From IMG/VR virus record IMGVR_UViG_2718218136_000003: a DNA stretch of 35,535 nucleotides; one strand, 5' to 3'. Below are positions 1 through 35,535 of the stretch, piece after piece. Origin of the DNA: a virus (taxonomy: Duplodnaviria; Heunggongvirae; Uroviricota; Caudoviricetes). Positions within the stretch are counted from its first letter, which is position 1. Each line of letters opens with the position of its first letter. The notes beneath the pieces are model-generated. The model was given only the letters and a program-made list of their open reading frames with translations. It did not search any database and had not been told where the DNA came from. Position numbers and translations under genes: made by a program.

Positions 1-900
1 TTAACGCAATAATGGACAATCTGGTGGTAATCGACAACGCAACGCCGCCGGAAGTATTTCAATATGAAAGTTTTGTCCGCTCAACGGTTCGCCATCAAGA
101 TTAAAAGTGATTTCGTGTGGGGCTTGTATATCAAACCACGACGAAGCGCCTTCGATAATATTCGGGTTATCTTCGTCAGATTTTAAGGTTGATACGAGAG
201 CCGGAAGAATTTCATCGCCGGTAAAAATGCGCAGTTGCAGCAAGCCATCGTTAATTAACGCGTTCGGACACAATTGCTGACCGCCACCGGCCTGACGCCC
301 GTTACCAATACCAATGACCAGGGCGTCACCTTGCCAGTGAAAGTTTTCACCGCGGATTTCACAACGGTCCGGTTGCAGAGTATCCATGCGCATTAAGCCA
401 TGAATGATGTAAGAGACGCCACCCAGCGCGGCTTTTAATTTTTCCGGCGTTTCTGTGGTAATACGCGTCCCAAATCCGCCTGTCGCCATATTAATAAAAC
501 AGGTTTGTTTGTTGACCTGCGCCATATCTATCGCAATGGCGTTACCGGCAATTGCCAGTTTCAGCGCCTTATCCAGTGCCTCAGGAATCCCTACACTGGT
601 GGCAAAATCATTGGCGGTTCCTAATGGCAAAATTCCCAGCGCGGGTATGTCATCCCCCTCACACTGAATCAACGCCGTAGAAACTTCATTAATGGTGCCA
701 TCGCCACCACCGGCAATCACCGTTGCGACGCCCAACTTCCGGGCCTCCTCTACATATCGTGCGGCATCGCCTTTCTCCCAGGTGACCCGCACATGGATCG
801 TCATTCCTTCCTCACGCAACAGCATAATTGCTTCGCGCAAGGGTAGATTGTCAGTACTTTTGCCATTAAGAATCAGTAAGCTGGCGGGAAATTCTGCCAT
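1..900 (-). CDS. yegS: Lipid kinase YegS (DAG-kinase catalytic-domain family), complete 299 aa
   Basis: Full-length ORF with ATG at 898-900 and TAA at 1-3 on minus strand; translation carries the GGDGT nucleotide-binding motif typical of DAGK_cat/YegS kinases; synteny with yegR and yegQ. Confidence 0.88.
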
Positions 901-1314
901 GATCGTATGTGCCTTTATGATTGGTCTGTAGATAGTGTAGAGCAGAAAACAAAAGGTGGAGTCAGAACAGGATGAAAGTCGGAGGATAAAAAGTCAGTTC
1001 AAGTATGGAGGATTCAGTGGTTACCACCAGGAGCTTGCAATGGGGACAGCGAATACTAACGGCTGCCACCGATAAATTTCAAAAAAGAGCATATGCCTAA
1101 TATTCAACCAAACAGTGGCATCTTAAATATACTATTCCAAATATATTAAAGCCCCCATGGAGTTACCCTGAAGGGCCTCAATGTCCGTAATTCCTACTTA
1201 TGTAGGAAATGTTGTACAGAACATTTATTATAATCCTATTCAATTATAATAATCATGCCATTATTATATTTAAACACTAGAGAGTGTCGTTGGTATTTAA
1301 TGGGGGAAGGTGAG

Positions 1315-1632
1315 ATGAAAAAGATAGCTGCTATATCATTAATTAGTATTTTTATTATGTCTGGTTGTGCTGTGCATAATGATGAGACAAGTATCGGTAA
1401 ATTTGGTCTTGCATATAAAAGTAATATTCAGCGTAAACTCGATAACCAATACTACACCGAAGCCGAAGCTTCTTTAGCCAGGGGCAGAATATCTGGTGCA
1501 GAAAATATAGTAAAAAATGATGCAGCCCATTTCTGTGTTACTCAGGGCAAAAAAATGCAGATAGTTGACCTGAAGACAGAAGGTGCAGGATTACATGGCG
1601 TCGCTCGTCTGACATTCAAATGTGGAGAGTGA
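1315..1632 (+). CDS. yegR: Small lipoprotein (signal peptide with lipobox-like SGC), 105 aa; positionally equivalent to E. coli yegR
   Basis: ORF 1255-1632 trimmed to internal ATG at 1315 preceded by GGGGGAAGGTGAG Shine-Dalgarno-like sequence; N-terminus MKKIAAISLISIFIMSGCA is a lipoprotein signal. Confidence 0.6.
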   Translation: MKKIAAISLISIFIMSGCAVHNDETSIGKFGLAYKSNIQRKLDNQYYTEAEASLARGRISGAENIVKNDAAHFCVTQGKKMQIVDLKTEGAGLHGVARLTFKCGE

Positions 1633-1694
1633 GAATATTTTTTGGTAAGCGTCAAACATGCGCGTTCTGGTTGTGCTTAGCCGGAACCTGTGCG

Positions 1695-1727
1695 AGCACG
1701 ATGCCGTTACGTGAAAGGCATCGTGCT
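1695..1727 (+). terminator. Perfect 11-bp inverted repeat (AGCACGATGCC / GGCATCGTGCT) with 11-nt loop downstream of yegR; candidate transcription terminator, no clear U-tract
   Basis: Inverted repeat read directly from the sequence about 60 nt after the yegR stop codon. Confidence 0.35.
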
Positions 1728-5486: not shown

Positions 5487-7761
5487 AGCCTCCGGGCGTT
5501 TTGTCCCTCCGTCAGCATTTGCTGCAGGCACCGGTAAGACGTTTACCGGTGCTTATGCATGGAGCGCGCCACGCGAGGCTGTCGGGCGCGAAAGACCCCT
5601 TACACGTGACGAGATGCGTCAGGTGCAAGGTGTTTTATCCACGATTAACCGCCTGCCTTACTTTTTGCGTTCGCTGTTTACTTCACGCTATGACTACATC
5701 CGGCGCAATAAAAGCCCGGTGCACGGGTTTTATTTCCTCACATCCACTTTTCAGCGCCGTTTATGGCCGCGCATTGAGCGTGTGAATCAGCGCCATGAAA
5801 TGAACACCGACGCGTCGTTACTGTTTCTGGCAGAGCGTGACCACTATGCGCGCCTGCCGGGAATGAATGACAAGGAGCTGAAAAAGTTTGCTGCCCGTAT
5901 CTCATCGCAGCTTTTCATGATGTATGAGGAACTCAGCGATGCCTGGGTGGATGCGCATGGCGAAAAAGAATCGCTGTTTACGGATGAGGCGCAGGCTCAC
6001 CTCTATGGTCATGTTGCTGGCGCTGCACGTGCTTTCAATATATCCCCTCTCTACTGGAAAAAATACCGTAAAGGGCAGATGACCACGAGGCAGGCATATT
6101 CTGCCATTGCCCGTCTGTTTAACGATGAGTGGTGGACTCATCAGCTTAAAGGCCAGCGTATGCGCTGGCATGAGGCGTTACTGATTGCTGTCGGGGAGGT
6201 CAATAAAGACCGTTCTCCTTATGCCAGTAAACATGCCATTCGTGATGTGCGTGCACGCCGCCAGGCAAATCTGGAATTTCTTAAATCGTGTGATCTCGAA
6301 AACAGGGAAACCGGCGAGCGCATCGACCTTATCAGTAAGGTGATGGGCAGTATTTCTAATCCTGAAATTCGCCGGATGGAGCTGATGAACACCATTGCCG
6401 GTATTGAGCGTTACGCCGCAGCAGAGGGTGATGTGGGGATGTTTATCACGCTGACCGCGCCGTCAAAGTATCACCCGACACGTCAGGTCAGAAAAGGCGA
6501 AAGTAAAACCGTCCAGCTAAATCACGGCTGGAACGATGAGGCATTTAATCCAAAGGATGCGCAGCGTTATCTCTGCCGTATCTGGAGCCTGATGCGCACG
6601 GCATTCAAGGATAATGATTTACAGGTCTACGGTTTGCGTGTCGTCGAGCCACACCACGACGGAACGCCGCACTGGCATATGATGCTTTTTTGTAATCCGC
6701 GCCAGCGTAACCAGATTATCGAAATCATGCGTCGCTATGCGCTCAAAGAGGATGGCGACGAAAGAGGAGCCGCGCGAAACCGTTTTCAGGCAAAACACCT
6801 TAATCGGGGCGGTGCTGCGGGGTATATCGCGAAATACATCTCAAAAAACATCGACGGCTATGCACTGGATGGTCAGCTCGATAACGATACCGGCAGACCT
6901 CTGAAAGATACTGCCGCGGCTGTTACTGCATGGGCGTCAACGTGGCGCATCCCGCAATTTAAAACGGTTGGTCTGCCGACAATGGGGGCTTACCGTGAAC
7001 TACGCAAATTGCCGCGCGGTGTCAGCATTGCTGATGAGTTTGACGAGCGCGTCGAGGCTGCACGCGCCGCCGCAGACAGTGGTGATTTTGCGTTGTATAT
7101 CAGCGCGCAGGGTGGGGCAAATGTCCCGCGCGATTGTCAGACTGTCAGGGTCGCCCGTAGCCCGTCGGATGACGTTAACGAGTACGAGGAAGAGGTCGAG
7201 AGAGTGGTCGGCATTTACGCGCCGCATCTCGGCGCGCGTCATATTCATATCACCAGAACGACGGACTGGCGCATTGTGCCGAAAGCTCCGGTCGTTGAGC
7301 CTTTGACTTTAAAAAGCGGCATCGCCGCGCCTCGGAGTCCTGTCAATAACTGTGGAAAGCTCACCGGTGGTGATACTTCGTTACCGGCTCCCACACCTTC
7401 TGAGCACGCCGCAGCAGTGCTAAATCTGGTTGATGACGGTGTTATCGAATGGAATGACCCGGAGGTTGTGAGGACGCTCAGGGGTGCATTAAAACACGGC
7501 CTGAAAACACCAAATCGTCAGCAAAGAAACGGAAGCCCGTTAAAACCACATGAAATAACACCGTCGGCCAGACTGACCCGGTCGGAACGATTGCAAATTA
7601 CCCGTATCCGCGTTGACCTCGCTCAGAACGGTATCAGGCCGCAACGATGGGAGCTTGAGGCGCTGGCGCGTGGCGCGACAGTAAATTATGACGGGAAAAA
7701 ATTCACGTATCCGGTCGCTGATGAGTGGTCGGGATTCTCAACAGTAATGGAGTGGACATGA
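5476..7761 (+). CDS. A: Replication initiation protein A (rolling-circle nicking protein), 761 aa
   Basis: ORF 5434-7761 trimmed to ATG at 5476, giving 761 aa as in P2 A; contains the HUH-type motif region (…PHHDGTPHWHMMLF…) and the YxxK-like region (AGYIAKYISK). Confidence 0.9.
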   Translation: MAIKASGRFVPPSAFAAGTGKTFTGAYAWSAPREAVGRERPLTRDEMRQVQGVLSTINRLPYFLRSLFTSRYDYIRRNKSPVHGFYFLTSTFQRRLWPRIERVNQRHEMNTDASLLFLAERDHYARLPGMNDKELKKFAARISSQLFMMYEELSDAWVDAHGEKESLFTDEAQAHLYGHVAGAARAFNISPLYWKKYRKGQMTTRQAYSAIARLFNDEWWTHQLKGQRMRWHEALLIAVGEVNKDRSPYASKHAIRDVRARRQANLEFLKSCDLENRETGERIDLISKVMGSISNPEIRRMELMNTIAGIERYAAAEGDVGMFITLTAPSKYHPTRQVRKGESKTVQLNHGWNDEAFNPKDAQRYLCRIWSLMRTAFKDNDLQVYGLRVVEPHHDGTPHWHMMLFCNPRQRNQIIEIMRRYALKEDGDERGAARNRFQAKHLNRGGAAGYIAKYISKNIDGYALDGQLDNDTGRPLKDTAAAVTAWASTWRIPQFKTVGLPTMGAYRELRKLPRGVSIADEFDERVEAARAAADSGDFALYISAQGGANVPRDCQTVRVARSPSDDVNEYEEEVERVVGIYAPHLGARHIHITRTTDWRIVPKAPVVEPLTLKSGIAAPRSPVNNCGKLTGGDTSLPAPTPSEHAAAVLNLVDDGVIEWNDPEVVRTLRGALKHGLKTPNRQQRNGSPLKPHEITPSARLTRSERLQITRIRVDLAQNGIRPQRWELEALARGATVNYDGKKFTYPVADEWSGFSTVMEWT

Positions 7762-8213
7762 TGGCAAAAATTCACGAGGTAAAGCTGCACGCAAAATATT
7801 TCGACCTTGTGCTGGAAGGAAAGAAACGCGCAGAGTTTCGGAAAAATGACCGTAATTATGAGCGCGGGGACACGTTGATTTTGCATGAATGGGGGCAGGG
7901 TGTGTATACGGGGCGAAAGGTTGAAGCCCGGATAACAGATGTTACTGACCTGTCAGACTGGCTGGAAGATTATGTCTTGCTAAGTATTGAGCTGCTTAAT
8001 ACAGGCGCATATGAGATTGTGAACTGGAAAGAACTTAGTGAGCGTGGTCTGTTATTCAGAATTAATCATGAAATTATGCATAAGCTCGGCCTTGCTGTTA
8101 TGTATGAACCAGAGACGGGAATGTCTGGCGGGGCAATGGTTGCCACGGATGGAGCATGGAACTATTCAGATGAACAGATGGAGCGTGCACAGCAAAACGG
8201 GTGGCTTGGATAA
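7758..8213 (+). CDS. ASCH/PUA-like (DUF3850-type) protein (P2 orf91 position), about 151 aa
   Basis: ATG at 7758 overlapping the A stop; N-terminal region (KIHEVKLHAKYFDLVLEGKKRAEFRKNDRNYERGDTLILHEW) resembles ASCH-domain proteins as I recall them. Confidence 0.65.
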   Translation: MMAKIHEVKLHAKYFDLVLEGKKRAEFRKNDRNYERGDTLILHEWGQGVYTGRKVEARITDVTDLSDWLEDYVLLSIELLNTGAYEIVNWKELSERGLLFRINHEIMHKLGLAVMYEPETGMSGGAMVATDGAWNYSDEQMERAQQNGWLG

Positions 8214-8490: not shown

Positions 8491-8648
8491 TTGACATTCA
8501 TATTTTTACTGCGTTGGTGCTGTTTTTTGACGGTTGAAAGGAGTTATCTCGGAGAGCTAAAGCTAACAACTTACAAATATTCAAAAGTAAGCTTCCTGTT
8601 GCTAACATAAGGTCGATTTTTTATGTGGATGATGCAAAAAGGATAGCT

Positions 8649-9380
8649 ATGGATACTATAATCGCTTTTCTATCACTCGCTTTTTTTGTTGCTTTTTTCA
8701 TCGGGTTAATCAAGCCATCACTGGTGCGAATGCCAAGCCGCAAACGTGCAAGTGCGGTTTATCTCGGAGGAGGTTTTGTATTGAGCATAATTGGTTCAAT
8801 ACTCTATCCAACAGAAAAAAGCCAGCCAGTTGCTAAAACTGAAACATCAACCGTTGTAGAACACCAAGTCCAAAAAACATTCGAATATGGTGAAAAAACA
8901 CTCAAGGAATATCGGAGCGAGCCAAAGAAAACTCGACACGATATTGTGAATAGTTACATTGACTTTAAGAAAGTTCCAGTCACCGCATCAGATGCATTTT
9001 ATGCCTGCATGAGTGAGTATACATTTACCAAAGATGATGAGTTGAAACTCGGTGATGTTCTTGGGTGGTGCTTTAATGATTATGAAAATGACCCGAGTTC
9101 ACTAAATAATAAAATCAATCTTGATACATTTCAGAGTAATTTTAGTGGTTGGGATGGTTCTTATCGTCCATTGGAAAAACTAATTAAAGATAATATGAAC
9201 GATGATTCATCTTATAAACATGTATCAACGGTATATCATTTAGTTTTGAATAAAGACCCGCACGCCATTGTGAAAACGACGTTTCGCGGCACTAATGCTT
9301 ATGGTGGCATGGTCAAACAGACTGTAGCAGCGCGAGTTGACGTGCGAACGGGTGAGATCGATTCAATACTCGACAATTAA
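8649..9380 (+). CDS. Uncharacterised membrane-anchored protein, 243 aa: two predicted N-terminal TM helices plus ~170-aa soluble domain; cargo in the tin/old slot
   Basis: ORF 8625-9380 trimmed to ATG at 8649 with AAGGA Shine-Dalgarno 6 nt upstream; hydrophobic stretches IIAFLSLAFFVAFFIGLI and AVYLGGGFVLSIIGSILY; AT-rich codon usage unlike the phage backbone. Confidence 0.6.
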   Translation: MDTIIAFLSLAFFVAFFIGLIKPSLVRMPSRKRASAVYLGGGFVLSIIGSILYPTEKSQPVAKTETSTVVEHQVQKTFEYGEKTLKEYRSEPKKTRHDIVNSYIDFKKVPVTASDAFYACMSEYTFTKDDELKLGDVLGWCFNDYENDPSSLNNKINLDTFQSNFSGWDGSYRPLEKLIKDNMNDDSSYKHVSTVYHLVLNKDPHAIVKTTFRGTNAYGGMVKQTVAARVDVRTGEIDSILDN

Positions 9381-9400: not shown

Positions 9401-9460
9401 TCAGTGATGAAACTTGCTTTTAGTCTTGGCGGGGTTGAGCAATGAGTCTTGCAAGGTGTT
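9401..9460 (+). repeat. Copy B of the ~60-bp imperfect direct repeat, running into the ribosome-binding site and start codon of cargo gene 2
   Basis: Manual alignment to 8431-8490; copy B ends GTTAGC immediately before ATG 9464. Confidence 0.6.
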
Positions 9461-9463
9461 AGC

Positions 9464-10120
9464 ATGCGTAGAATGGAAGCTGCTTGGACGTGGGGTATTC
9501 ATATGAATTTAAAAATTTTCGGCATAATTGTCCTTTCTGCTTTGATGTTCGTTTTAGGTTTTTTTCTCGGTGGTTTTAATTGGGAATGGGCTGATAAGAA
9601 TTATGCAGGTGAGGTGGCGTTGTGGAGTATGTTAGGAGGGTGGTTATCCGCAATTGCAACTCTGTTTGCCGTGTTGGTTTCATTATATATGGCGTATCAA
9701 GCTACTCAGAATGAGATTGAAAAAATCAGGGTTACTCATGGAGTAAGTATGAGTGTCACTCATGACAATGAGTTAAGTTGTAATCTCATTATTCAGAACT
9801 TGAGAAATATGAAAGTGAATATTACTGGTGTTTTTTTGTCTCTAGGTAAATCATCAGGTAAGTACTCTTTGGATAAAGTAATTGACAATCGTAATATAAC
9901 GCTTTCATATAAAGGTGAAACAGAAAAGGTACAATTTGTAATCCATTCTGGGTATATTTGGTGGTCAATGTATAAATTATTCGATATGGATAAGAACATA
10001 GGTTTTGAAAAGGGTAAGATCTTGATAACAACCAACCTCAATACATATGAATTTGATTTGCCAAAAGAATATTTAAGAGCTTTTGAGAAAGCTTATTCGG
10101 AGTATCAGACAAAAAAATAA
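9464..10120 (+). CDS. Uncharacterised membrane-anchored protein, 218 aa: two predicted N-terminal TM helices plus ~150-aa soluble domain; cargo in the tin/old slot
   Basis: ORF 9449-10120 trimmed to ATG at 9464 with AAGGTG 5 nt upstream; hydrophobic stretches IFGIIVLSALMFVLGFFLGGF and WSMLGGWLSAIATLFAVLVSLYMAY; AT-rich. Confidence 0.6.
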   Translation: MRRMEAAWTWGIHMNLKIFGIIVLSALMFVLGFFLGGFNWEWADKNYAGEVALWSMLGGWLSAIATLFAVLVSLYMAYQATQNEIEKIRVTHGVSMSVTHDNELSCNLIIQNLRNMKVNITGVFLSLGKSSGKYSLDKVIDNRNITLSYKGETEKVQFVIHSGYIWWSMYKLFDMDKNIGFEKGKILITTNLNTYEFDLPKEYLRAFEKAYSEYQTKK

Positions 10121-10249
10121 TGAGCTGCATGCAAAAGGTGCATGTTTTTGCATGTGCTAAGTTCACTGGTTTTGTGTATATCGCTTCAGATCTAGCGTGG
10201 TTCCGGGGAGGGCATGCAACTGCATTAAAACCGCTCCATGAAGCGGGCG

Positions 10250-10268
10250 GGCGAGGCGGGGAAAGCAC
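10250..10268. other. cos site: 19-nt cohesive-end sequence GGCGAGGCGGGGAAAGCAC
   Basis: Exact string found about 170 bp beyond the Q stop codon, at the position of cos in P2; matches the P2 cohesive-end sequence as I recall it. Confidence 0.7.
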
Positions 10269-10437
10269 TGCGCGCTGGCGGTGGTGCTGATTTTATTTTT
10301 TCAGCGTCTGAGCGCGTCGTGATGGCGTTTAGATTGTTCGCCGGGGCGTTGGTGTGTCTGCGGGATGTTTTGTACGGTGGTGAGCGTGTGAGGGCGTGAT
10401 GACAGGGTGTAAAAAAGCCGCCCGCAGGCGGCGATGT

Positions 10438-26032: not shown

Positions 26033-26788
26033 CTATTCCTTGGCCTCTTTATTTTTCTCGCCATCGCCAATGTAAAGAAGATAATCGTTTAAGGATATCC
26101 TTCCGGAGGGGCCGGTCCATGTTATCAATCCGTTCTCACGAAGATTAAATAATGCTTCCATGAACTCATTATCGTTAAAAGAATGATCCTCTGAGAACAG
26201 AATGTTCATTTTTCTCAATAGTTCTTCCACTTTAATCTTTTCATATCGCCTTATCAGACTTAGTGCTTTACGACGCATTAAGATTGTAGGTACTGCTTGT
26301 GAACGAATGGTTTTTTGTATTCCACTATCAAGAACTTTCTTGATCTTGCTCTCTAACTCTTTGATTTTAGTTTCATTATCTCCATTGGACTTAAGCTTTT
26401 CATCAACGATGCAAATAATTTCCTGACTAATGCTGTTCTTGAGGTTGTTTATTTTTTCTTCATTGTTGAGAATCTCATCAGAGCTTCCTGCATGGGGTTT
26501 TTTCCATATGTGCTGACGCATATCCGTTACCGTATCTCTCATCATAGAGAATGTATCTGAATATAACTTGTCAAATATTTTTTCCAGTCGTTCGACACTT
26601 GCCTGGATGTCTTTTGCTGCTTTAGTTGTCTCTTTAGAAGCCTCATTCGACATTTTATAAAAAACAAAAGAAAGCCAAATAGCCCCAATGGCGAGTACTA
26701 ATGAGGCTATTGTGGCAATAAAACCTATTATTGTTATTGCTGTATCTAATGTGCCTGCTGCATCTGTGACTACTGTTTCTGCTGCCAT
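26033..26788 (-). CDS. Uncharacterised AT-rich membrane-anchored coiled-coil protein, 251 aa (P2 Z/fun slot)
   Basis: Opposite strand to the tail genes; N-terminal hydrophobic helix (ITIIGFIATIASLVLAIGAIWLSFVFY) followed by a Lys/Glu-rich region; GAGGAT Shine-Dalgarno before ATG at 26788. Confidence 0.6.
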   Translation of the reverse strand: MAAETVVTDAAGTLDTAITIIGFIATIASLVLAIGAIWLSFVFYKMSNEASKETTKAAKDIQASVERLEKIFDKLYSDTFSMMRDTVTDMRQHIWKKPHAGSSDEILNNEEKINNLKNSISQEIICIVDEKLKSNGDNETKIKELESKIKKVLDSGIQKTIRSQAVPTILMRRKALSLIRRYEKIKVEELLRKMNILFSEDHSFNDNEFMEALFNLRENGLITWTGPSGRISLNDYLLYIGDGEKNKEAKE

Positions 26789-28501: not shown

Positions 28502-29020
28502 ATGGCAATGCCGCGCAAACTCAAATACATGAATGTCTTTCTGAACGGCTACAGCTATCAGGGCGTTGCAAATTCCGTCACGCTGCCAAAACTGACCCGT
28601 AAGCTCGAAAACTATCGCGGTGCGGGGATGAACGGCAGCGCACCGGTAGACCTCGGCCTTGATGATGATGCGCTGTCAATGGAGTGGTCGCTCGGGGGCT
28701 TCCCGGATTCGGTTATCTGGGAGCTTTACGCTGCAACCAGTGCTGATGCCGTACCGATTCGTTTTGCTGGTTCTTACCAGCGCGACGATACCGGCGAAAC
28801 GGTGGCCGTCGAAGTGGTCATGCGTGGGCGTCAGAAAGAAGTCGACACCGGAGAGGGTAAACAGGGAGAGGATACCGAATCGAAACTCCCGGTGATTTGT
28901 ACTTATTTCAAGTTGACGATGGACGGTAAGGAGCTGGTCGAAATCGACACCATCAACATGATTGAGAAGGTGAACGGCGTCGACCGGCTGGAGCAACACC
29001 GCCGTAATATCGGCCTGTGA
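28502..29020 (+). CDS. FII: Tail tube protein FII, 172 aa
   Basis: 172-aa ORF, P2 FII length and position. Confidence 0.9.
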   Translation: MAMPRKLKYMNVFLNGYSYQGVANSVTLPKLTRKLENYRGAGMNGSAPVDLGLDDDALSMEWSLGGFPDSVIWELYAATSADAVPIRFAGSYQRDDTGETVAVEVVMRGRQKEVDTGEGKQGEDTESKLPVICTYFKLTMDGKELVEIDTINMIEKVNGVDRLEQHRRNIGL

Positions 29021-29076: not shown

Positions 29077-29352
29077 ATGAACAAAGAAAATGTGATTACC
29101 CTGGACAATCCGGTCAAACGTGGTGAGCAGGTTATCGAACAGGTCACGCTGATGAAACCCAATGCCGGGACGCTGCGCGGTGTCAGTCTGGCAGCGGTCG
29201 CGAACTCCGAAGTCGATGCACTGATTAAGGTGCTGCCGCGCATGACAGCACCGATGCTGACCGAGCAGGAGGTCGCCGCGCTGGAACTGCCTGACCTTGT
29301 GGCGCTGGCCGGTAAGGTGGTCGGTTTTTTGTCGCCGAACTCGGTGCAGTGA
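29077..29352 (+). CDS. E: Tail assembly chaperone E, 91 aa
   Basis: 91-aa ORF before the tape measure gene, P2 E length. Confidence 0.85.
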   Translation: MNKENVITLDNPVKRGEQVIEQVTLMKPNAGTLRGVSLAAVANSEVDALIKVLPRMTAPMLTEQEVAALELPDLVALAGKVVGFLSPNSVQ

Positions 29353-29504
29353 CGTTTCCGAAAAATCTCTCGGTCGATGACCTGATGGCGGATGTGGCTG
29401 TGATATTTCACTGGCCGCCATCAGAACTGTACCCCATGAGCCTGACCGAACTCATCACATGGCGCGAAAAGGCGCTCCGGCGAAGCGGAAACACGAATGA
29501 GTAA
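29077..29504 (+). CDS. E': E+E' fusion product made by programmed -1 ribosomal frameshift at slippery heptamer T_TTT_TTG (29325-29331), about 142 aa
   Basis: Heptamer sits in the X_XXY_YYZ register of the E frame; -1 frame is open from 29331 to TAA at 29502-29504, overlapping the T start. Confidence 0.75.
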
Positions 29505-31944
29505 CAATGTAAAATTACAAGTATTGCTCAGGGCTGTTGACCAGGCATCCCGCCCGTTTAAATCCATCCGCACAGCGAGTAAGTCGCTGTCGGGGGATAT
29601 CCGGGAAACACAAAAATCACTGCGCGAGCTGAACGGTCACGCATCCCGTATTGAGGGATTCCGCAAGACCAGTGCACAGCTCGCCGTGACTGGTCAGGAA
29701 CTGAAAAAAGCCAGACAGGAAGCCGCAGCTCTGGCTGTCCAGTTTAAAAATACTGAACGACCGACAAATGCACAGGCAAAGGCAATGGAAGCCGCGCGTA
29801 AAAATGCGTCTGAGTTACAGGCGAAATATAACAGCCTGAGATTGTCGGTACAGCGTCAGCGTCAGGAATTGAGTCAGGCGGGTATTAATACCCGTAATCT
29901 GGCGCATGATGAACGAGGACTGAAAAACCGTATCAGTGAAACCACCGCACAGCTTAACCGTCAGCGTGACGCGCTGGCGCGTGTCAGTGCGCAACAGGCA
30001 AAACTTAACGCAGTAAAAAAGCGTTATCAGGCAGGCAAGGAACTGGCCGGAAATATGGCCTCAGTGGGCGCTGCCGGTGTGGGGATTGCGGCGGCGGGAA
30101 CGATGGCCGGAGTTAAGCTGCTGATGCCCGGTTATGAGTTTGCGCAGAAAAACTCAGAATTACAGGCTGTGATCGGAGTGGCAAAAGACTCCGCCGAAAT
30201 GACCGCACTACGCAAACAGGCGCGCCAGCTCGGCGACAATACCGCCGCCTCGGCGGATGATGCGGCCGGTGCACAGATAATCATCGCGAAAGCGGGTGGG
30301 GATGTTGATGCCATTCAGGCGGCAACGCCGGTCACGCTGAATATGGCGCTGGCGAACCGCCGCACGATGGAAGAAAACGCCGCCCTGCTGATGGGGATGA
30401 AATCCGCCTTTCAGCTTTCAAACGATAAGGTCGCTCATATCGGGGATGTTCTCTCCATGACGATGAACAAAACCGCCGCCGATTTTGACGGCATGAGCGA
30501 TGCGCTGACCTATGCCGCACCTGTGGCAAAAAATGCCGGTGTCAGCATTGAAGAAACCGCCGCAATGGTCGGGGCGCTGCATGATGCAAAAATCACAGGC
30601 TCAATGGCGGGGACGGGAAGCCGTGCCGTGTTAAGCCGTCTGCAGGCACCGACGGGAAAAGCATGGGATGCACTCAAAGAGCTTGGAGTGAAAACCTCAG
30701 ATAGTAAGGGAAACACCCGGCCAATATTTACCATTCTGAAAGAAATGCAGGCCAGTTTTGAGAAAAACCGGCTCGGTACTGCCCAGCAGGCTGAATACAT
30801 GAAAACTATTTTCGGGGAGGAGGCCAGCTCAGCCGCCGCCGTGCTGATGACTGCCGCCTCAACCGGAAAGCTGGACAAACTGACCGCTGCGTTTAAAGCC
30901 TCAGACGGGAAGACCGCCGAGCTGGTAAATATCATGCAGGACAACCTCGGCGGTGACTTTAAGGAGTTTCAGTCCGCTTATGAGGCGGTGGGGACTGACC
31001 TGTTTGACCAGCAGGAAGGCGCGCTGCGTAAGCTCACGCAGACGGCCACAAAGTATGTGTTAAAACTCGACGGCTGGATCAAGAAAAACAAATCACTGGC
31101 GTCAACCATCGGCCTCATTGTCGGTGGCGCACTGGCGCTTACTGGCATCATCGGTGCAATCGGTCTTGTAGCCTGGCCGGTTATCACCGGCATTAATGCC
31201 ATCATCGCGGCAGCAGGCGCAATGGGGGCAATCTTCACGACGGTTGGCAGTGCTGTTATGACCGCCATCGGGGCGATTAGCTGGCCGGTTGTGGCTGTGG
31301 TGGCCGCCATTGTCGCCGGGGCGTTACTTATCCGTAAATACTGGGAGCCTGTCAGCGCATTCTTTGGCGGTGTGGTTGAAGGGCTGAAAGCGGCATTTGC
31401 GCCGGTGGGGGAACTGTTCACGCCACTGAATCCGGTGTTTGACTGGCTGGGCGAAAAGTTACAGGCCGCGTGGCAGTGGTTTAAAAACCTGATTGCCCCG
31501 GTTAAAGCCACCCAGGACACCCTGAACCGTTGCCGTGACACGGGCGTCATGTTCGGGCAGGCACTGGCTGACGCGTTGATGCTGCCGCTTAATGCGTTCA
31601 ACAAACTGCGCAGTGGTATTGACTGGGTACTGGAAAAACTCGGTGTTATCAACAAAGAGTCAGACACACTTGACCAGACCGCCGCCAGAACTCATGCCGC
31701 CACGTATGGCACCGGTGGTTATATTCCGGCGACCAGTTCTTATGCAGGCTATCAGGCTTATCAGCCGGTCACGGCACCGGCTGGCCGCTCTTATGTGGAC
31801 CAGAGTAAAAACGAATATCACATCAACCTGACGGGTGGTACTGCGCCGGGGACACAGCTTGACCGCCAGTTACAGGATGCGCTCGAAAAATACGAGCGGG
31901 ATAAACGTGCGCGCGCCCGTGCCAGCATGATGCATGACGGTTAA
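29497..31944 (+). CDS. T: Tail tape measure protein T, 815 aa
   Basis: 815-aa ORF with coiled-coil N-terminal half and hydrophobic Gly/Ala-rich segment, P2 T length. Confidence 0.9.
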   Translation: MSNNVKLQVLLRAVDQASRPFKSIRTASKSLSGDIRETQKSLRELNGHASRIEGFRKTSAQLAVTGQELKKARQEAAALAVQFKNTERPTNAQAKAMEAARKNASELQAKYNSLRLSVQRQRQELSQAGINTRNLAHDERGLKNRISETTAQLNRQRDALARVSAQQAKLNAVKKRYQAGKELAGNMASVGAAGVGIAAAGTMAGVKLLMPGYEFAQKNSELQAVIGVAKDSAEMTALRKQARQLGDNTAASADDAAGAQIIIAKAGGDVDAIQAATPVTLNMALANRRTMEENAALLMGMKSAFQLSNDKVAHIGDVLSMTMNKTAADFDGMSDALTYAAPVAKNAGVSIEETAAMVGALHDAKITGSMAGTGSRAVLSRLQAPTGKAWDALKELGVKTSDSKGNTRPIFTILKEMQASFEKNRLGTAQQAEYMKTIFGEEASSAAAVLMTAASTGKLDKLTAAFKASDGKTAELVNIMQDNLGGDFKEFQSAYEAVGTDLFDQQEGALRKLTQTATKYVLKLDGWIKKNKSLASTIGLIVGGALALTGIIGAIGLVAWPVITGINAIIAAAGAMGAIFTTVGSAVMTAIGAISWPVVAVVAAIVAGALLIRKYWEPVSAFFGGVVEGLKAAFAPVGELFTPLNPVFDWLGEKLQAAWQWFKNLIAPVKATQDTLNRCRDTGVMFGQALADALMLPLNAFNKLRSGIDWVLEKLGVINKESDTLDQTAARTHAATYGTGGYIPATSSYAGYQAYQPVTAPAGRSYVDQSKNEYHINLTGGTAPGTQLDRQLQDALEKYERDKRARARASMMHDG

Positions 31945-32438: not shown

Positions 32439-33601
32439 TGCTGGATGCGCTGACATTTGATGCAGGCAGTACGCTGACGCCGGATTATATGCTGATGCTC
32501 GACAGCAGGGATATTACCGGCAATATCAGCGACCGTCTGATGAGCATGACCCTGACGGATAACCGGGGCTTTGAGGCTGACCAGCTTGATATTGAACTGA
32601 ACGATGCCGACGGGCAGGTCGGACTACCGATTCGTGGCGCTGTCCTGACGGTGTATATCGGCTGGAAAGGTTTTGCCCTGGTATGCAAAGGGAAATTTAC
32701 CGTTGATGAGGTTGAACACCGGGGCGCACCGGATGTGGTCACCATCCGCGCCCGGAGTGCAGATTTTCGCGGGACGCTCAATTCCCGCCGTGAAGGCTCA
32801 TGGCATGACACCACGCTCGGTGCGATTGTTGAGGCGATTGCCTCCCGTAACAGGCTGGAAGCCAGTGTCGCGCCGTCACTGGCCGGAATTAAAATCCCGC
32901 ACATCGACCAGTCGCAGGAGTCTGATGCGAAATTCCTGACCCGCCTTGCTGAACGCAACGGCGGTGATGTGTCGGTAAAAATGGGAAAACTGCTGTTTCT
33001 CAAAGCGGGGCAGGGGGTGACTGCCAGCGGTAAAAAAACCCCGCAGATTACCATCACCCGCAGCGACGGTGACCGTCATCATTTTGCGATTGCTGACCGT
33101 GGAGCCTACACCGGTGTAACGGCAAAATGGCTACACACTAAAGACCCGAAGCCGCAAAAGCAGAAGGTAAAACTGAAACGCAAAAAGAAAGAGAAACACC
33201 TGCGCGCACTGGAGCACCCGAAAGCGAAACCGGTCAGGCAGAAGAAAGCGCCAAAAGTACCGGAAGCGCGCGAAGGTGAATACATGGCCGGTGAGGCTGA
33301 CAACGTTTTTGCCCTGACCACGGTATATGCCACGAAAGCGCAGGCCATGCGCGCCGCTCAGGCGAAGTGGGATAAACTGCAACGGGGCGTCGCGGAGTTC
33401 TCCATCAGTCTGGCTATCGGTCGGGCAGATATTTACACGGAAACGCCGGTCAAAGTGTCAGGCTTTAAGCGCGTCATAGACGAGCAGGACTGGACAATCA
33501 CTAAGGTGACACATTTTCTGAATAATAGCGGCTTCACGACGTCCTTGGAGCTTGAGGTCAGGCTTTCTGATGTGGAGTACGAAACAGAAGATGATGAGTG
33601 A
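32438..33601 (+). CDS. D: Tail protein D (late control gene D), 387 aa
   Basis: 387-aa ORF, P2 D length and position. Confidence 0.88.
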   Translation: MLDALTFDAGSTLTPDYMLMLDSRDITGNISDRLMSMTLTDNRGFEADQLDIELNDADGQVGLPIRGAVLTVYIGWKGFALVCKGKFTVDEVEHRGAPDVVTIRARSADFRGTLNSRREGSWHDTTLGAIVEAIASRNRLEASVAPSLAGIKIPHIDQSQESDAKFLTRLAERNGGDVSVKMGKLLFLKAGQGVTASGKKTPQITITRSDGDRHHFAIADRGAYTGVTAKWLHTKDPKPQKQKVKLKRKKKEKHLRALEHPKAKPVRQKKAPKVPEAREGEYMAGEADNVFALTTVYATKAQAMRAAQAKWDKLQRGVAEFSISLAIGRADIYTETPVKVSGFKRVIDEQDWTITKVTHFLNNSGFTTSLELEVRLSDVEYETEDDE

Positions 33602-33682
33602 TGTATTTTGTTTATCTGTTTGTTTTATAAAGATAAATTAACTAAAATGGCACTATCAACAAAACCGGAAGAGGTGCTCGCG

Positions 33683-33901
33683 ATGTTTCATTGTCCTTTA
33701 TGCCAGCATGCCGCACATGCGCGTACAAGCCGCTATATCACTGACACGACAAAAGAGCGTTATCACCAGTGCCAGAACGTGAATTGCAGCGCCACGTTCA
33801 TCACCTATGAGTCGGTACAGCGATACATCGTGAAGCCGGGAGAAGTCCACGCCGTAAGGCCGCACCCGTTGCCGTCAGGGCAGCAAATTATGTGGATGTA
33901 A
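33683..33901 (+). CDS. ogr: Late-gene transcriptional activator Ogr (zinc finger), 72 aa
   Basis: ORF 33608-33901 trimmed to MFHCPLCQHAAHARTSRYITDTTKERYHQCQNVNCSATF…, the C4 zinc-finger protein of P2 as I recall it; last gene before attR. Confidence 0.9.
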   Translation: MFHCPLCQHAAHARTSRYITDTTKERYHQCQNVNCSATFITYESVQRYIVKPGEVHAVRPHPLPSGQQIMWM

Positions 33902-33911
33902 TTACAAACAG

Positions 33912-33938
33912 GAAGCCCCTCAGTCGAGGGGCTTTTTT
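33912..33938 (+). terminator. Rho-independent terminator after ogr (AAGCCCCTC-loop-GAGGGGCTT followed by TTTTTT)
   Basis: 9-bp GC-rich stem with a T-run immediately downstream of the ogr stop. Confidence 0.8.
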
Positions 33939-34001
33939 GTCGATGTGGTCAATGTGTGGACGTGACCAGAAATAAATCCTTTTATTTCATTGTATTACGC
34001 G

Positions 34002-34029
34002 TAAAAAATAAGCCCGTGTAAGGGAGATT
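34002..34029. repeat. attR core: TAAAAAATAAGCCCGTGTAAGGGAGATT, identical to attL core
   Basis: Exact 28-nt match to 1790-1817; overlaps the 3' terminator of cyaR. Confidence 0.85.
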
Positions 34030-34089
34030 ACACAGGCTAAGGAGGTGGTTCCTGGTACAGCTAGCATTTTATGGGTTATGTTTTTCAGC
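34003..34089 (-). ncRNA. cyaR: CyaR (RyeE) Hfq-dependent sRNA, about 87 nt
   Basis: Minus-strand sequence GCTGAAAAACATAACCCATAAAATGCTAGCTGTACCAGGAACCACCTCCTTAGCCTGTGTAATCTCCCTTACACGGGCTTATTTTTT matches CyaR as I recall it; ends in a terminator hairpin plus U-tract; lies between ogr and yegQ as in E. coli. Confidence 0.8.
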
Positions 34090-34173
34090 GAAACGGATGA
34101 TAACCTTAATAAATGCAGCTGTATGTGATCGGTTTCTAAGAATTTTCCATCCGGGAAAAATAATCGAAATTAA

Positions 34174-35535
34174 TCACTTACCGTGGGGATTACGCGTGGT
34201 TTCCCCGGAGAAATTACGCATCAGCAGCGCGTAATTGAGCTCAAGATCCTGCGGGACCGGGAGCCACACAGTATAACCATCGCCTGGTGCTATCGGCATA
34301 GCTTCGCCTTTGGCGTTTTCCATGTGCTCAAGGGTAAAATTAATGTTGCCTTGCGGCGTCATCAGCTCAAGGCTGTCGCCAACGGAGAATTTATTTTTCA
34401 CCGCTACCGCCGCGAGGTCCCCCTTGCGCTCACCGGTAAACTCACCAACAAACTGCTGGCGGTCAGAAACTGAATAACCGTATTCGTAGTTCTGATAATC
34501 GTCGTGAGTATGACGACGCAGGAAACCTTCGGTATAGCCACGATGCGCCAGACCTTCCAGAGTTTCCAGCAGGCTGGTATCGAACGGTTTTCCCGCAGCG
34601 GCGTCATCGATAGCTTTGCGGTAAACCTGTGCGGTGCGTGCACAATAGTAGAAAGATTTGGTACGACCTTCGATTTTCAGCGAATGCACGCCCATTTTGG
34701 TCAGGCGTTCTACATGGGCGATGGCGCGCAGATCTTTCGAGTTCATGATGTAAGTGCCGTGCTCATCTTCAAACGCGGTCATATACTCGCCCGGACGCTG
34801 GGCCTCTTCGATCATAAACACTTTGTCGGTTGGTGCGCCGATACCCAGCGTCGGCTCAACATTTTGCACCGGAATCGGCTCGTACTTGTGTACGATGTTG
34901 CCAACATCATCTTCTTTCCCTTCCTGGACGTTGTACTCCCAGCGGCAGGCGTTGGTGCAGGTGCCCTGGTTCGGGTCGCGCTTGTTGATATAGCCAGAGA
35001 GCAGGCAGCGACCGGAGTAGGCCATGCACAGCGCGCCGTGAACGAAGATCTCGATCTCCATATCCGGCACCTGATTGCGGATCTCTTCAATCTCTTCCAG
35101 CGACAGCTCGCGAGAGAGGATCACGCGGGTCAGGCCCATTTGCTGCCAGAATTTCACCGTCGCCCAGTTCACGGCGTTAGCCTGCACCGAAAGGTGGATC
35201 GGCATTTCAGGGAAGTGCTCACGCACCAGCATAATCAGCCCTGGATCGGACATAATCAGCGCATCCGGCCCCATTTCCACCACCGGTTTCAGGTCACGGA
35301 TAAAGGTTTTCAGCTTGGCGTTGTGCGGTGCAATGTTGACCACGACATAAAACTTTTTCCCCAGCGCGTGGGCTTCATTGATGCCGAGCTGAAGATTTTC
35401 GTGGTTGAATTCGTTGTTGCGCACACGCAGGGAATAACGCGGCTGGCCCGCATAAACAGCATCTGCGCCATAAGCGAAAGCGTAACGCATATTTTTCAGC
35501 GTTCCCGCCGGGGAAAGGAGTTCCGGTTTAAACAT
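34174..35535 (-). CDS. yegQ: Peptidase U32 family protein YegQ (tRNA hydroxylation protein), complete 453 aa
   Basis: Full-length minus-strand ORF starting at the window edge (ATG at 35533-35535); U32 family features including a Cys-rich segment (CMAYSGRC…CTNACRWEY); backbone-like GC content. Confidence 0.85.
   Translation of the reverse strand: MFKPELLSPAGTLKNMRYAFAYGADAVYAGQPRYSLRVRNNEFNHENLQLGINEAHALGKKFYVVVNIAPHNAKLKTFIRDLKPVVEMGPDALIMSDPGLIMLVREHFPEMPIHLSVQANAVNWATVKFWQQMGLTRVILSRELSLEEIEEIRNQVPDMEIEIFVHGALCMAYSGRCLLSGYINKRDPNQGTCTNACRWEYNVQEGKEDDVGNIVHKYEPIPVQNVEPTLGIGAPTDKVFMIEEAQRPGEYMTAFEDEHGTYIMNSKDLRAIAHVERLTKMGVHSLKIEGRTKSFYYCARTAQVYRKAIDDAAAGKPFDTSLLETLEGLAHRGYTEGFLRRHTHDDYQNYEYGYSVSDRQQFVGEFTGERKGDLAAVAVKNKFSVGDSLELMTPQGNINFTLEHMENAKGEAMPIAPGDGYTVWLPVPQDLELNYALLMRNFSGETTRNPHGK

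Follow-up and report, generated by a model that had tools for sequence, protein, structure and literature searches.

The window, that is the whole stretch of 35,535 nucleotides analysed here, is E. coli chromosome carrying a P2-like prophage, with yegR/yegS on one flank and ogrK/yegQ on the other. Pfam searches and comparison with the P2 record showed that the prophage is complete and in P2 gene order, running int, C, cox, B, A, cos, Q, P, O, N, M, L, X, Y, K, lysA, lysB, R, S, V, W, J, I, H, G, FI, FII, E, T, U, D and ogr. The cos site at 10250-10268 is intact and has the same sequence as P2 cosL. P2 carries tin/old and fun(Z), whereas the cargo genes of the prophage here differ, and its cargo ORFs gave no match with PADLOC or Pfam. 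The site of interest lies in the FI-FII-E-T-U-D tail operon, whose order is as in P2, and comprises the following features.

28502-29020, plus strand: FII, the tail tube gene and upstream neighbour of the site (Pfam Phage_tube, E = 1.8e-60; position matches P2 gpFII).
29077-29352, plus strand: E, tail assembly chaperone gene, zero-frame product of 91 aa (Pfam Phage_TAC_7, PF10109, 47 bits against a cut-off of 25).
29315-29322, plus strand: Shine-Dalgarno-like AGGTGGTC, 2 nt 5' of the heptamer, a candidate modulator (predicted duplex with the 16S 3' tail, -12.8 kcal/mol).
29325-29331, plus strand: slippery heptamer T_TTT_TTG, in X_XXY_YYZ register in the E frame and the same as the annotated P2 site.
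29331-29504, plus strand: E' segment in the -1 frame, 57 codons plus TAA (Pfam Phage_P2_GpE, PF06528, E = 2e-22, 78.7 bits against a cut-off of 23).
29350-29352, plus strand: TGA stop of E for non-shifting ribosomes.
29497-31944, plus strand: T, the tape-measure gene (Pfam PhageMin_Tail, E = 2.4e-45).

Gene E starts at ATG 29077, and position 29325 is the third base of a Gly codon GGT, so that the E frame reads GGT TTT TTG across the heptamer. A preliminary description of this DNA had placed T_TTT_TTG in the correct zero-frame register seven codons before the E stop, and both statements were borne out, as the heptamer is followed by six sense codons (S P N S V Q) with the TGA as the seventh. 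On the upstream side the -1 frame is closed by a TAA at 29313-29315, 9 nt before the heptamer, and is open from 29316, with no start codon between that TAA and the heptamer. On the downstream side the -1 frame is open as had been described, but it holds 57 sense codons counted from GTC at 29331, and the earlier figure of 58 is reached only if one TTT is included. Likewise, while the terminal TAA indeed lies at 29502-29504, it does not overlap the start codon of T as had been claimed: the ATG occupies 29497-29499 and the TAA falls over T codons 2-3, the end of E' and the start of T sharing the 8 nt ATGAGTAA. The fusion of E and E' is 142 aa long and carries both the Phage_TAC_7 and the Phage_P2_GpE domain; no PDB chain matched it by sequence at E <= 1. 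The expectation that plain ORF calling would miss the fusion also proved right, the ORF list giving two ORFs and the RefSeq annotation of a near-identical E. coli prophage giving two CDSs.

The heptamer alone is no more than chance would provide. In-register X_XXY_YYZ heptamers number 33 in the 32 ORFs (9,050 codons) of the window, and TTTTTTG itself occurs 27 times on both strands. In only two cases does the -1 frame at such a heptamer extend beyond the zero-frame stop, namely at the E site and at the end of ORF 9449-10120. The latter, an A_AAA_AAA heptamer followed by a -1 extension of 57 codons, was rejected as a chance occurrence, for the extension crosses intergenic DNA and cos and has no Pfam match. 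Chance thus yields about one combination of heptamer and open frame per window of this kind, and homology and conservation must carry the case.

Homology to phage P2 is close. Over 601 nt around the site, 74 phage records match at 95-99% identity, P2 at 97.3%; ten nucleotide differences separate the prophage from P2 over 428 nt, and the 127 nt from 29272 to 29398, heptamer included, are identical. The E' protein is 100% identical to that of P2, both nucleotide differences in E' falling at -1-frame third positions. The alignment with P2 E+E' that had been suggested as a check, with the P2 fusion rebuilt in the same way, gave 141 identical residues out of 142, the sole difference being N29 here against S29 in P2 gpE. 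P2 has T_TTT_TTG in the same register and equally far from the E stop, and it also shares the 57-codon E', the 8-nt overlap with T and the products of 91 and 142 aa. The P2 record in GenBank (AF063097) annotates E together with a joined CDS described as 'gpE+E'; -1 frameshift; essential tail protein', and puts a 'site of -1 translational frameshift' on the nucleotide that follows the heptamer. PMC3091744, which cites Christie et al. 2002 and Xu et al. 2004, reports for P2 a -1 shift at TTTTTTG with products of 91 aa (E) and 142 aa (E+E'), and states that no downstream structure was found. P2 E' has further been described as having no ribosome-binding site, extending 37 nt back into E and overlapping T (PMC3931495), and the geometry here is the same, the interval 29316-29352 measuring exactly 37 nt. 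All sequence-level features that define the P2-type gpE/gpE+E' pair are present at this locus.

Relatives were sampled by scanning one genome per species, which gave 80 loci on diverse Enterobacterales contigs with 61-100% amino acid identity to the fusion. Towards its 3' end, E contains an in-register heptamer in all 80, as T_TTT_TTG in 77 and T_TTT_TTA in 3, and a -1 ORF of 57-62 codons was found in 78, the remaining two (L123 and L124) ending at the contig edge before a stop. Six T followed by G was also found in 80 of 80 IMG/VR loci. A tblastn search with the fusion matched 418 phage records, 401 of which hold both halves in two frames. Fourteen distant phages were compared for the heptamer. 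T_TTT_TTG is present in 186, Midge, Milagro, KS5, Pseudomonas Sirocco, a Ralstonia phage, a Halomonas phage, Aeromonas LPM4, Acidovorax Alfacinha3 and Klebsiella Kp4871-2, and Burkholderia phages are among the distant P2-like phages that keep it; Smp131 has T_TTT_TTT, Vibrio MAR has T_TTT_TTC, Mannheimia PHL101 has G_GGA_AAG and Xuanwuvirus P88_4B11 has A_AAT_TTT. The joined product is already annotated in several of the distant-phage records. The preliminary description had held that a -1 extension lacking in relatives would speak against a frameshift; the extension is present in the 80 relatives and in distant P2-like phages, and at the level of sequence it is firmly conserved.

The pattern of substitution points the same way. 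The six T are invariant over 78 distinct sequences, although two of them are synonymous positions. The Gly codon at the heptamer is GGT in 77 of 77 sequences, while the other Gly codons in E are mixed (1.26-1.78 bits); the Phe codon is TTT in 78 of 78, E having no other Phe codon for comparison; and the Leu codon is TTG in 75 and TTA in 3 but never CTN, against mostly CTG elsewhere in E. The synonymous sites of the heptamer accordingly have zero or near-zero entropy, compared with an average of 1.29 bits at other third positions of E. Upstream of the heptamer, entropy at codon positions 1, 2 and 3 of the zero frame is 0.54, 0.29 and 1.29 bits, and in the stretch coding for E' only it is 0.40, 0.18 and 0.89 bits at positions 1, 2 and 3 of the -1 frame, so that the most variable codon position moves from zero-frame position 3 before the site to -1-frame position 3 after it. 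Two public assemblies carry in-frame fused variants of the site, with four T in L164 and seven T in L165, and these may be homopolymer sequencing errors; the sequencing records concerned are SRR22193300 and ERR13763818. A further locus (L004, from IMG/VR), which had been suspected to be a naturally fused gene from its match of 423 nt against 425, proved to have a normal six-T site.

These observations bear on three other explanations of the locus. That the heptamer and the open -1 frame arose by chance, or belong to a decayed and non-functional prophage remnant, is scarcely credible: in-register heptamers are common, and the one at the end of ORF 9449-10120 shows that an open -1 frame of 57 codons can follow by chance, but the -1 frame of E holds a Pfam GpE domain (E = 2e-22), the heptamer is kept in every relative and every IMG/VR locus, the codon positions of the -1 frame bear the signature of purifying selection, and the prophage has kept the gene order of P2 in full, its cos site being intact. 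On these sequence comparisons, the conservation data refute the reading of chance or decay. A second explanation makes E' a separate small gene of 51 aa, translated from GTG 29349 with no frameshift. An ORF with this GTG start (29349-29504) does exist in the ORF list, and RefSeq annotates its equivalent in E. coli genomes as a stand-alone 'GpE family phage tail protein'. However, among 80 relatives only 3 have a start codon at this position (GTA in 36, CTG in 20), a -1-frame start codon between the upstream stop and the heptamer was found in only 1 of 80, and in 60 of 80 the first start codon of the -1 frame is an ATG within the conserved domain. Moreover, the -1-frame residues before GTG 29349 (V-A/T-E-F-G...) are conserved as protein, and these can be reached only by shifting, since the -1 frame is closed 9 nt ahead of the heptamer and has no start codon after that stop. 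The absence of a ribosome-binding site reported for P2 E' (PMC3931495) also argues against a separate gene, which we regard as very improbable.

The remaining explanation is that the fusion arises mainly from transcriptional slippage, the polymerase adding a U within the U6 run to give the junction ...GFFVAE.... A homopolymer run is present at the site, and the two run-length variants mentioned above, with four and seven T, fuse the frames in the DNA and imply that the run is length-unstable somewhere, in biology or in sequencing. On the other hand, the run comprises only six T, fewer than the length at which efficient bacterial transcriptional slippage has reportedly been described, runs of about 8-9 or more. 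It is the whole heptamer that is kept in X_XXY_YYZ register, including the base at the Z position (G in 75, A in 3), and the non-homopolymeric heptamers at the same place in Mannheimia PHL101 (G_GGA_AAG) and Xuanwuvirus (A_AAT_TTT) fit tRNA re-pairing but not polymerase slippage. The literature (PMC3091744 and PMC3931495) ascribes the event in P2 to translational frameshifting. A mainly transcriptional origin of the fusion thus appears very improbable, if a shade less so than an independent E' gene.

Given the anatomy, homology and conservation observed here, the site is in all likelihood a programmed -1 frameshift of the gpE/gpE+E' tail-assembly chaperone pair in a P2-like (Peduoviridae) prophage, as the preliminary description had proposed; tail-operon order, a P2-identical site and the near-complete identity of the fusion all agree with that proposal. 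We rely on earlier studies of P2 and lambda for the inference that the shift occurs, for its efficiency and for the role as chaperone. In the mechanism envisaged, ribosomes translating E would arrive at G GUU UUU UGU, where tRNA-Phe would be paired with UUU in the P site and tRNA-Leu with UUG in the A site. Most would continue through six further residues to the UGA and release the 91-aa E. In a minority, reportedly about 10% in P2, both tRNAs would slip back by one base onto UUU UUU (tandem -1 slippage on U_UUU_UUG), and the shifted ribosomes would restart at GUC (29331) and complete the 142-aa E+E' over 57 codons in the -1 frame, so that E' would be translated only as a C-terminal extension of E. 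The junction residue would be Leu, decoded from the zero-frame UUG, or Phe. The predicted tryptic junction peptide is VVGFLVAELGAVTFPK for a -1 ribosomal shift with Leu decoded first, and VVGFFVAELGAVTFPK if slippage precedes the decoding of Leu or if the transcript carries U7. By analogy with lambda gpG/gpGT, the E part common to both products would coat the tape-measure protein T, the E' domain of the rarer fusion would recruit the tube protein FII, and both E and E+E' would leave the finished tail.

A stimulatory structure downstream of the heptamer was sought and received little support. The predicted fold of 29332-29420 had a z-score of -1.59, and 15 of 200 shuffled sequences folded as well. 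RNAalifold on 21 diverse sequences returned a weak and mostly invariant long-range helix of -9.6 kcal/mol with a covariation term of -0.86. The palindrome CGCCGAAYTCGGYG just 3' of the heptamer was considered as a hairpin and rejected, its covariation being no better than in shuffles; its conservation follows from its being coding in two frames. There is thus no evidence for a downstream stimulator, in agreement with the literature on P2 (PMC3091744).

Upstream of the heptamer lies the Shine-Dalgarno-like AGGTGGTC. No other stretch of E/E' is predicted to pair as strongly with the 16S 3' tail; the duplex ranks in the top 0.4% of tail-operon windows and is stronger than those of the real ribosome-binding sites that serve E, T, FI and FII. 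The codons it covers are conserved at synonymous positions, Lys being AAG in 67 of 68 sequences and Val GTG in 74 of 78, whereas Lys codons elsewhere in E are mixed. Among 11 distant T6-type phages, 9 have a duplex at least as strong as -10.3 kcal/mol, usually on xAG GTx, within 24 nt upstream of the heptamer, against a background of about 3% of positions (binomial tail 1e-12, with a threshold chosen post hoc and phages that are not fully independent). The conserved AGGTG(R)T, 2-6 nt before the heptamer, may tune the E : E+E' ratio, up or down, via pairing with 16S rRNA. At the other end of the -1 frame, the start of T overlaps the end of E' in 62 of 62 distinct junctions, by 8 nt in 44 of them, and the predicted Shine-Dalgarno 5' of T is weak across the 62 (median -3.5 kcal/mol, no duplex beyond -4.9). 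From this weak site and the overlap, T may be translated largely by frameshifted ribosomes via termination-reinitiation, and such coupling, if true, would tie the dose of tape-measure protein to that of E+E'. We put forward these two possibly new layers of control on a known frameshift, Shine-Dalgarno-like tuning and coupling of T to frameshifted ribosomes, only tentatively.

The feature itself is already known: the E/E+E' frameshift of P2 has been documented in print since 2002, the P2 reference genome annotates it, and as biology the frameshift here adds nothing new. The significance for annotation is greater. RefSeq-style calls split the pair in two and give E' a start that is not conserved, and about 1,620 of 5,426 complete E. 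coli genomes have a matching region; judging from the one RefSeq record inspected, many proteomes probably lack the true 142-aa product. The Shine-Dalgarno-like element and the possible coupling of T could, in addition, offer a cheap experimental handle on the balance between chaperone and tape-measure dose, as well as on how a frameshift with no downstream structure attains a set efficiency.

Among known systems, the frameshift site of E. coli dnaX (A_AAA_AAG) likewise has an X_XXY_YYZ heptamer ending in G and an upstream Shine-Dalgarno-like element, but it also has a downstream hairpin, and none is supported at the E/E' site. According to PMC6321510, -1 shifting is stimulated when an internal Shine-Dalgarno is placed 8-11 nt upstream, and a closely juxtaposed one can lower it; the element here lies 2-5 nt from the heptamer, in contrast to the reported stimulatory spacing of 8-11 nt. 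The comparison with lambda-like phages made in the preliminary description holds as an analogy of arrangement and not as sequence homology, since a BLASTP comparison of E with lambda G gave no match even at E <= 100. Their relation is one of arrangement and, by analogy, of presumed function, and not a demonstrable sequence family. Lambda differs in its heptamer (G_GGA_AAG against T_TTT_TTG here), in the length of its -1 extension (144 codons against 57) and in the strong Shine-Dalgarno AGGAGGAG of its gene H, that of the P2-type T being weak. The arrangement, on the other hand, is alike: lambda gpG/gpGT (Levin et al. 1993; Xu et al. 2004, 2013, 2014) is also encoded between the major tail/tube gene and the tape-measure gene, the -1 shift also occurs at an in-register heptamer shortly before the upstream stop (5 codons, against 6 here), the -1 ORF also ends 8 nt into the tape-measure gene H, and two products with a common N-terminus result, as for E and E+E'. 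In lambda, according to the Atkins review (PMC5009743), the tape-measure protein is bound by G and by the G portion of GT, and the major tail protein by the T domain; G and GT occur at a ratio of about 30:1, and neither is in the virion.

The E/E' pair and its T_TTT_TTG site were compared with near-identical and related loci; the features considered were:
L003 1178-1605 (NZ_CP182365.1), E/E' equivalent in a near-identical E. coli prophage, corresponding to window 29077-29504
L164 840-860 (Logan SRR22193300), E and E' fused in one frame, 4 T
L165 870-890 (Logan ERR13763818), E and E' fused in one frame, 7 T
Window 9449-10290, look-alike heptamer A_AAA_AAA in register, with open -1 frame
Window 29315-29322, Shine-Dalgarno-like AGGTGGTC, 2 nt 5' of the slippery heptamer, with predicted 16S 3' tail pairing
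Window 29477-29504, E' stop / T start junction

A single near-identical RefSeq record of E. coli, NZ_CP182365.1, was inspected, and it draws E/E' as two CDSs: a 'phage tail assembly protein', followed by a 51-aa 'GpE family phage tail protein' with a GTG start. Of the 80 relatives from other Enterobacterales contigs (L084-L163), just 3 have a start codon at the position of this GTG. If the two-CDS pattern of this record is general, the annotation gap would be systematic, because a matching region is present in about 1,620 of the 5,426 complete genomes of E. coli. The T run itself was 6 T long in each of the 160 loci looked at, from genomes and from IMG/VR. E and E' share one frame in the two loci from public Logan assemblies because their runs hold 4 T and 7 T rather than 6, and several similar 'fused' proteins (141-153 aa) were present in the protein database; such fusions reflect either sequencing error in the homopolymer or genuine variation in the length of the run.

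The A_AAA_AAA site of ORF 9449-10120 served as a control for the E/E' geometry. Here the heptamer lies in register at the end of the ORF, with a stop codon immediately after, and 57 further codons can be read in the -1 frame. We rejected this site as a chance copy of the geometry, as the extension matched no family and runs across cos (10250-10268), which is the same as P2 cosL.

The predicted pairing of AGGTGGTC with the 16S 3' tail (-12.8 kcal/mol) tops all positions of E/E'. The equivalent position was looked at in L084-L163 and L166-L178; synonymous sites of the element are kept (AAG 67/68, GTG 74/78), and 9 of 11 distant T6-type P2-like phages have a similar motif (GAGGT/AGGTG) ahead of the heptamer. 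The element may affect the frameshift rate, in either direction.

The setting of the prophage and its non-P2 ORFs comprise:
Window 1-1700 and 33600-35535, prophage flanks, yegR/yegS and ogrK/yegQ (trhP)
Window 7725-8213, ORF with ASCH/DUF3850 domain and DUF7415, 3' of replication gene A
Window 8625-9380, + strand, low-GC cargo ORF
Window 9449-10120, + strand, low-GC cargo ORF
Window 26033-26788, - strand, low-GC cargo ORF

The prophage is inserted between yegR/yegS and ogrK/yegQ (trhP), the site of a cryptic P2 remnant in E. coli K-12, and its gene order is a circular permutation of the P2 virion map with cos at 10250-10268, as expected because this copy is integrated. ORF 7725-8213, whose PHROG matches carry the label RNA-binding protein, stands in place of P2 orf91. 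The three cargo ORFs (37-43% GC) occupy the positions of P2 tin/old and fun(Z), hotspots at which P2-like phages carry anti-phage genes. Pfam and PADLOC gave no match for any of the three, and their PHROGs (phrog_3403, phrog_16957 and phrog_36054) are all function-unknown families; the three ORFs are candidates for defence or lysogenic-conversion genes not yet characterised.

At the 3' end of E', the T start overlaps the E' stop without exception across L084-L163; of the 62 distinct junctions, 44 share 8 nt (ATGAGTAA). The predicted Shine-Dalgarno 5' of T is weak throughout (median -3.5 kcal/mol). Frameshifted ribosomes might translate T by termination-reinitiation. The overlap is also 8 nt at lambda T/H, but the Shine-Dalgarno there is strong, whereas that predicted for P2-type T is weak.
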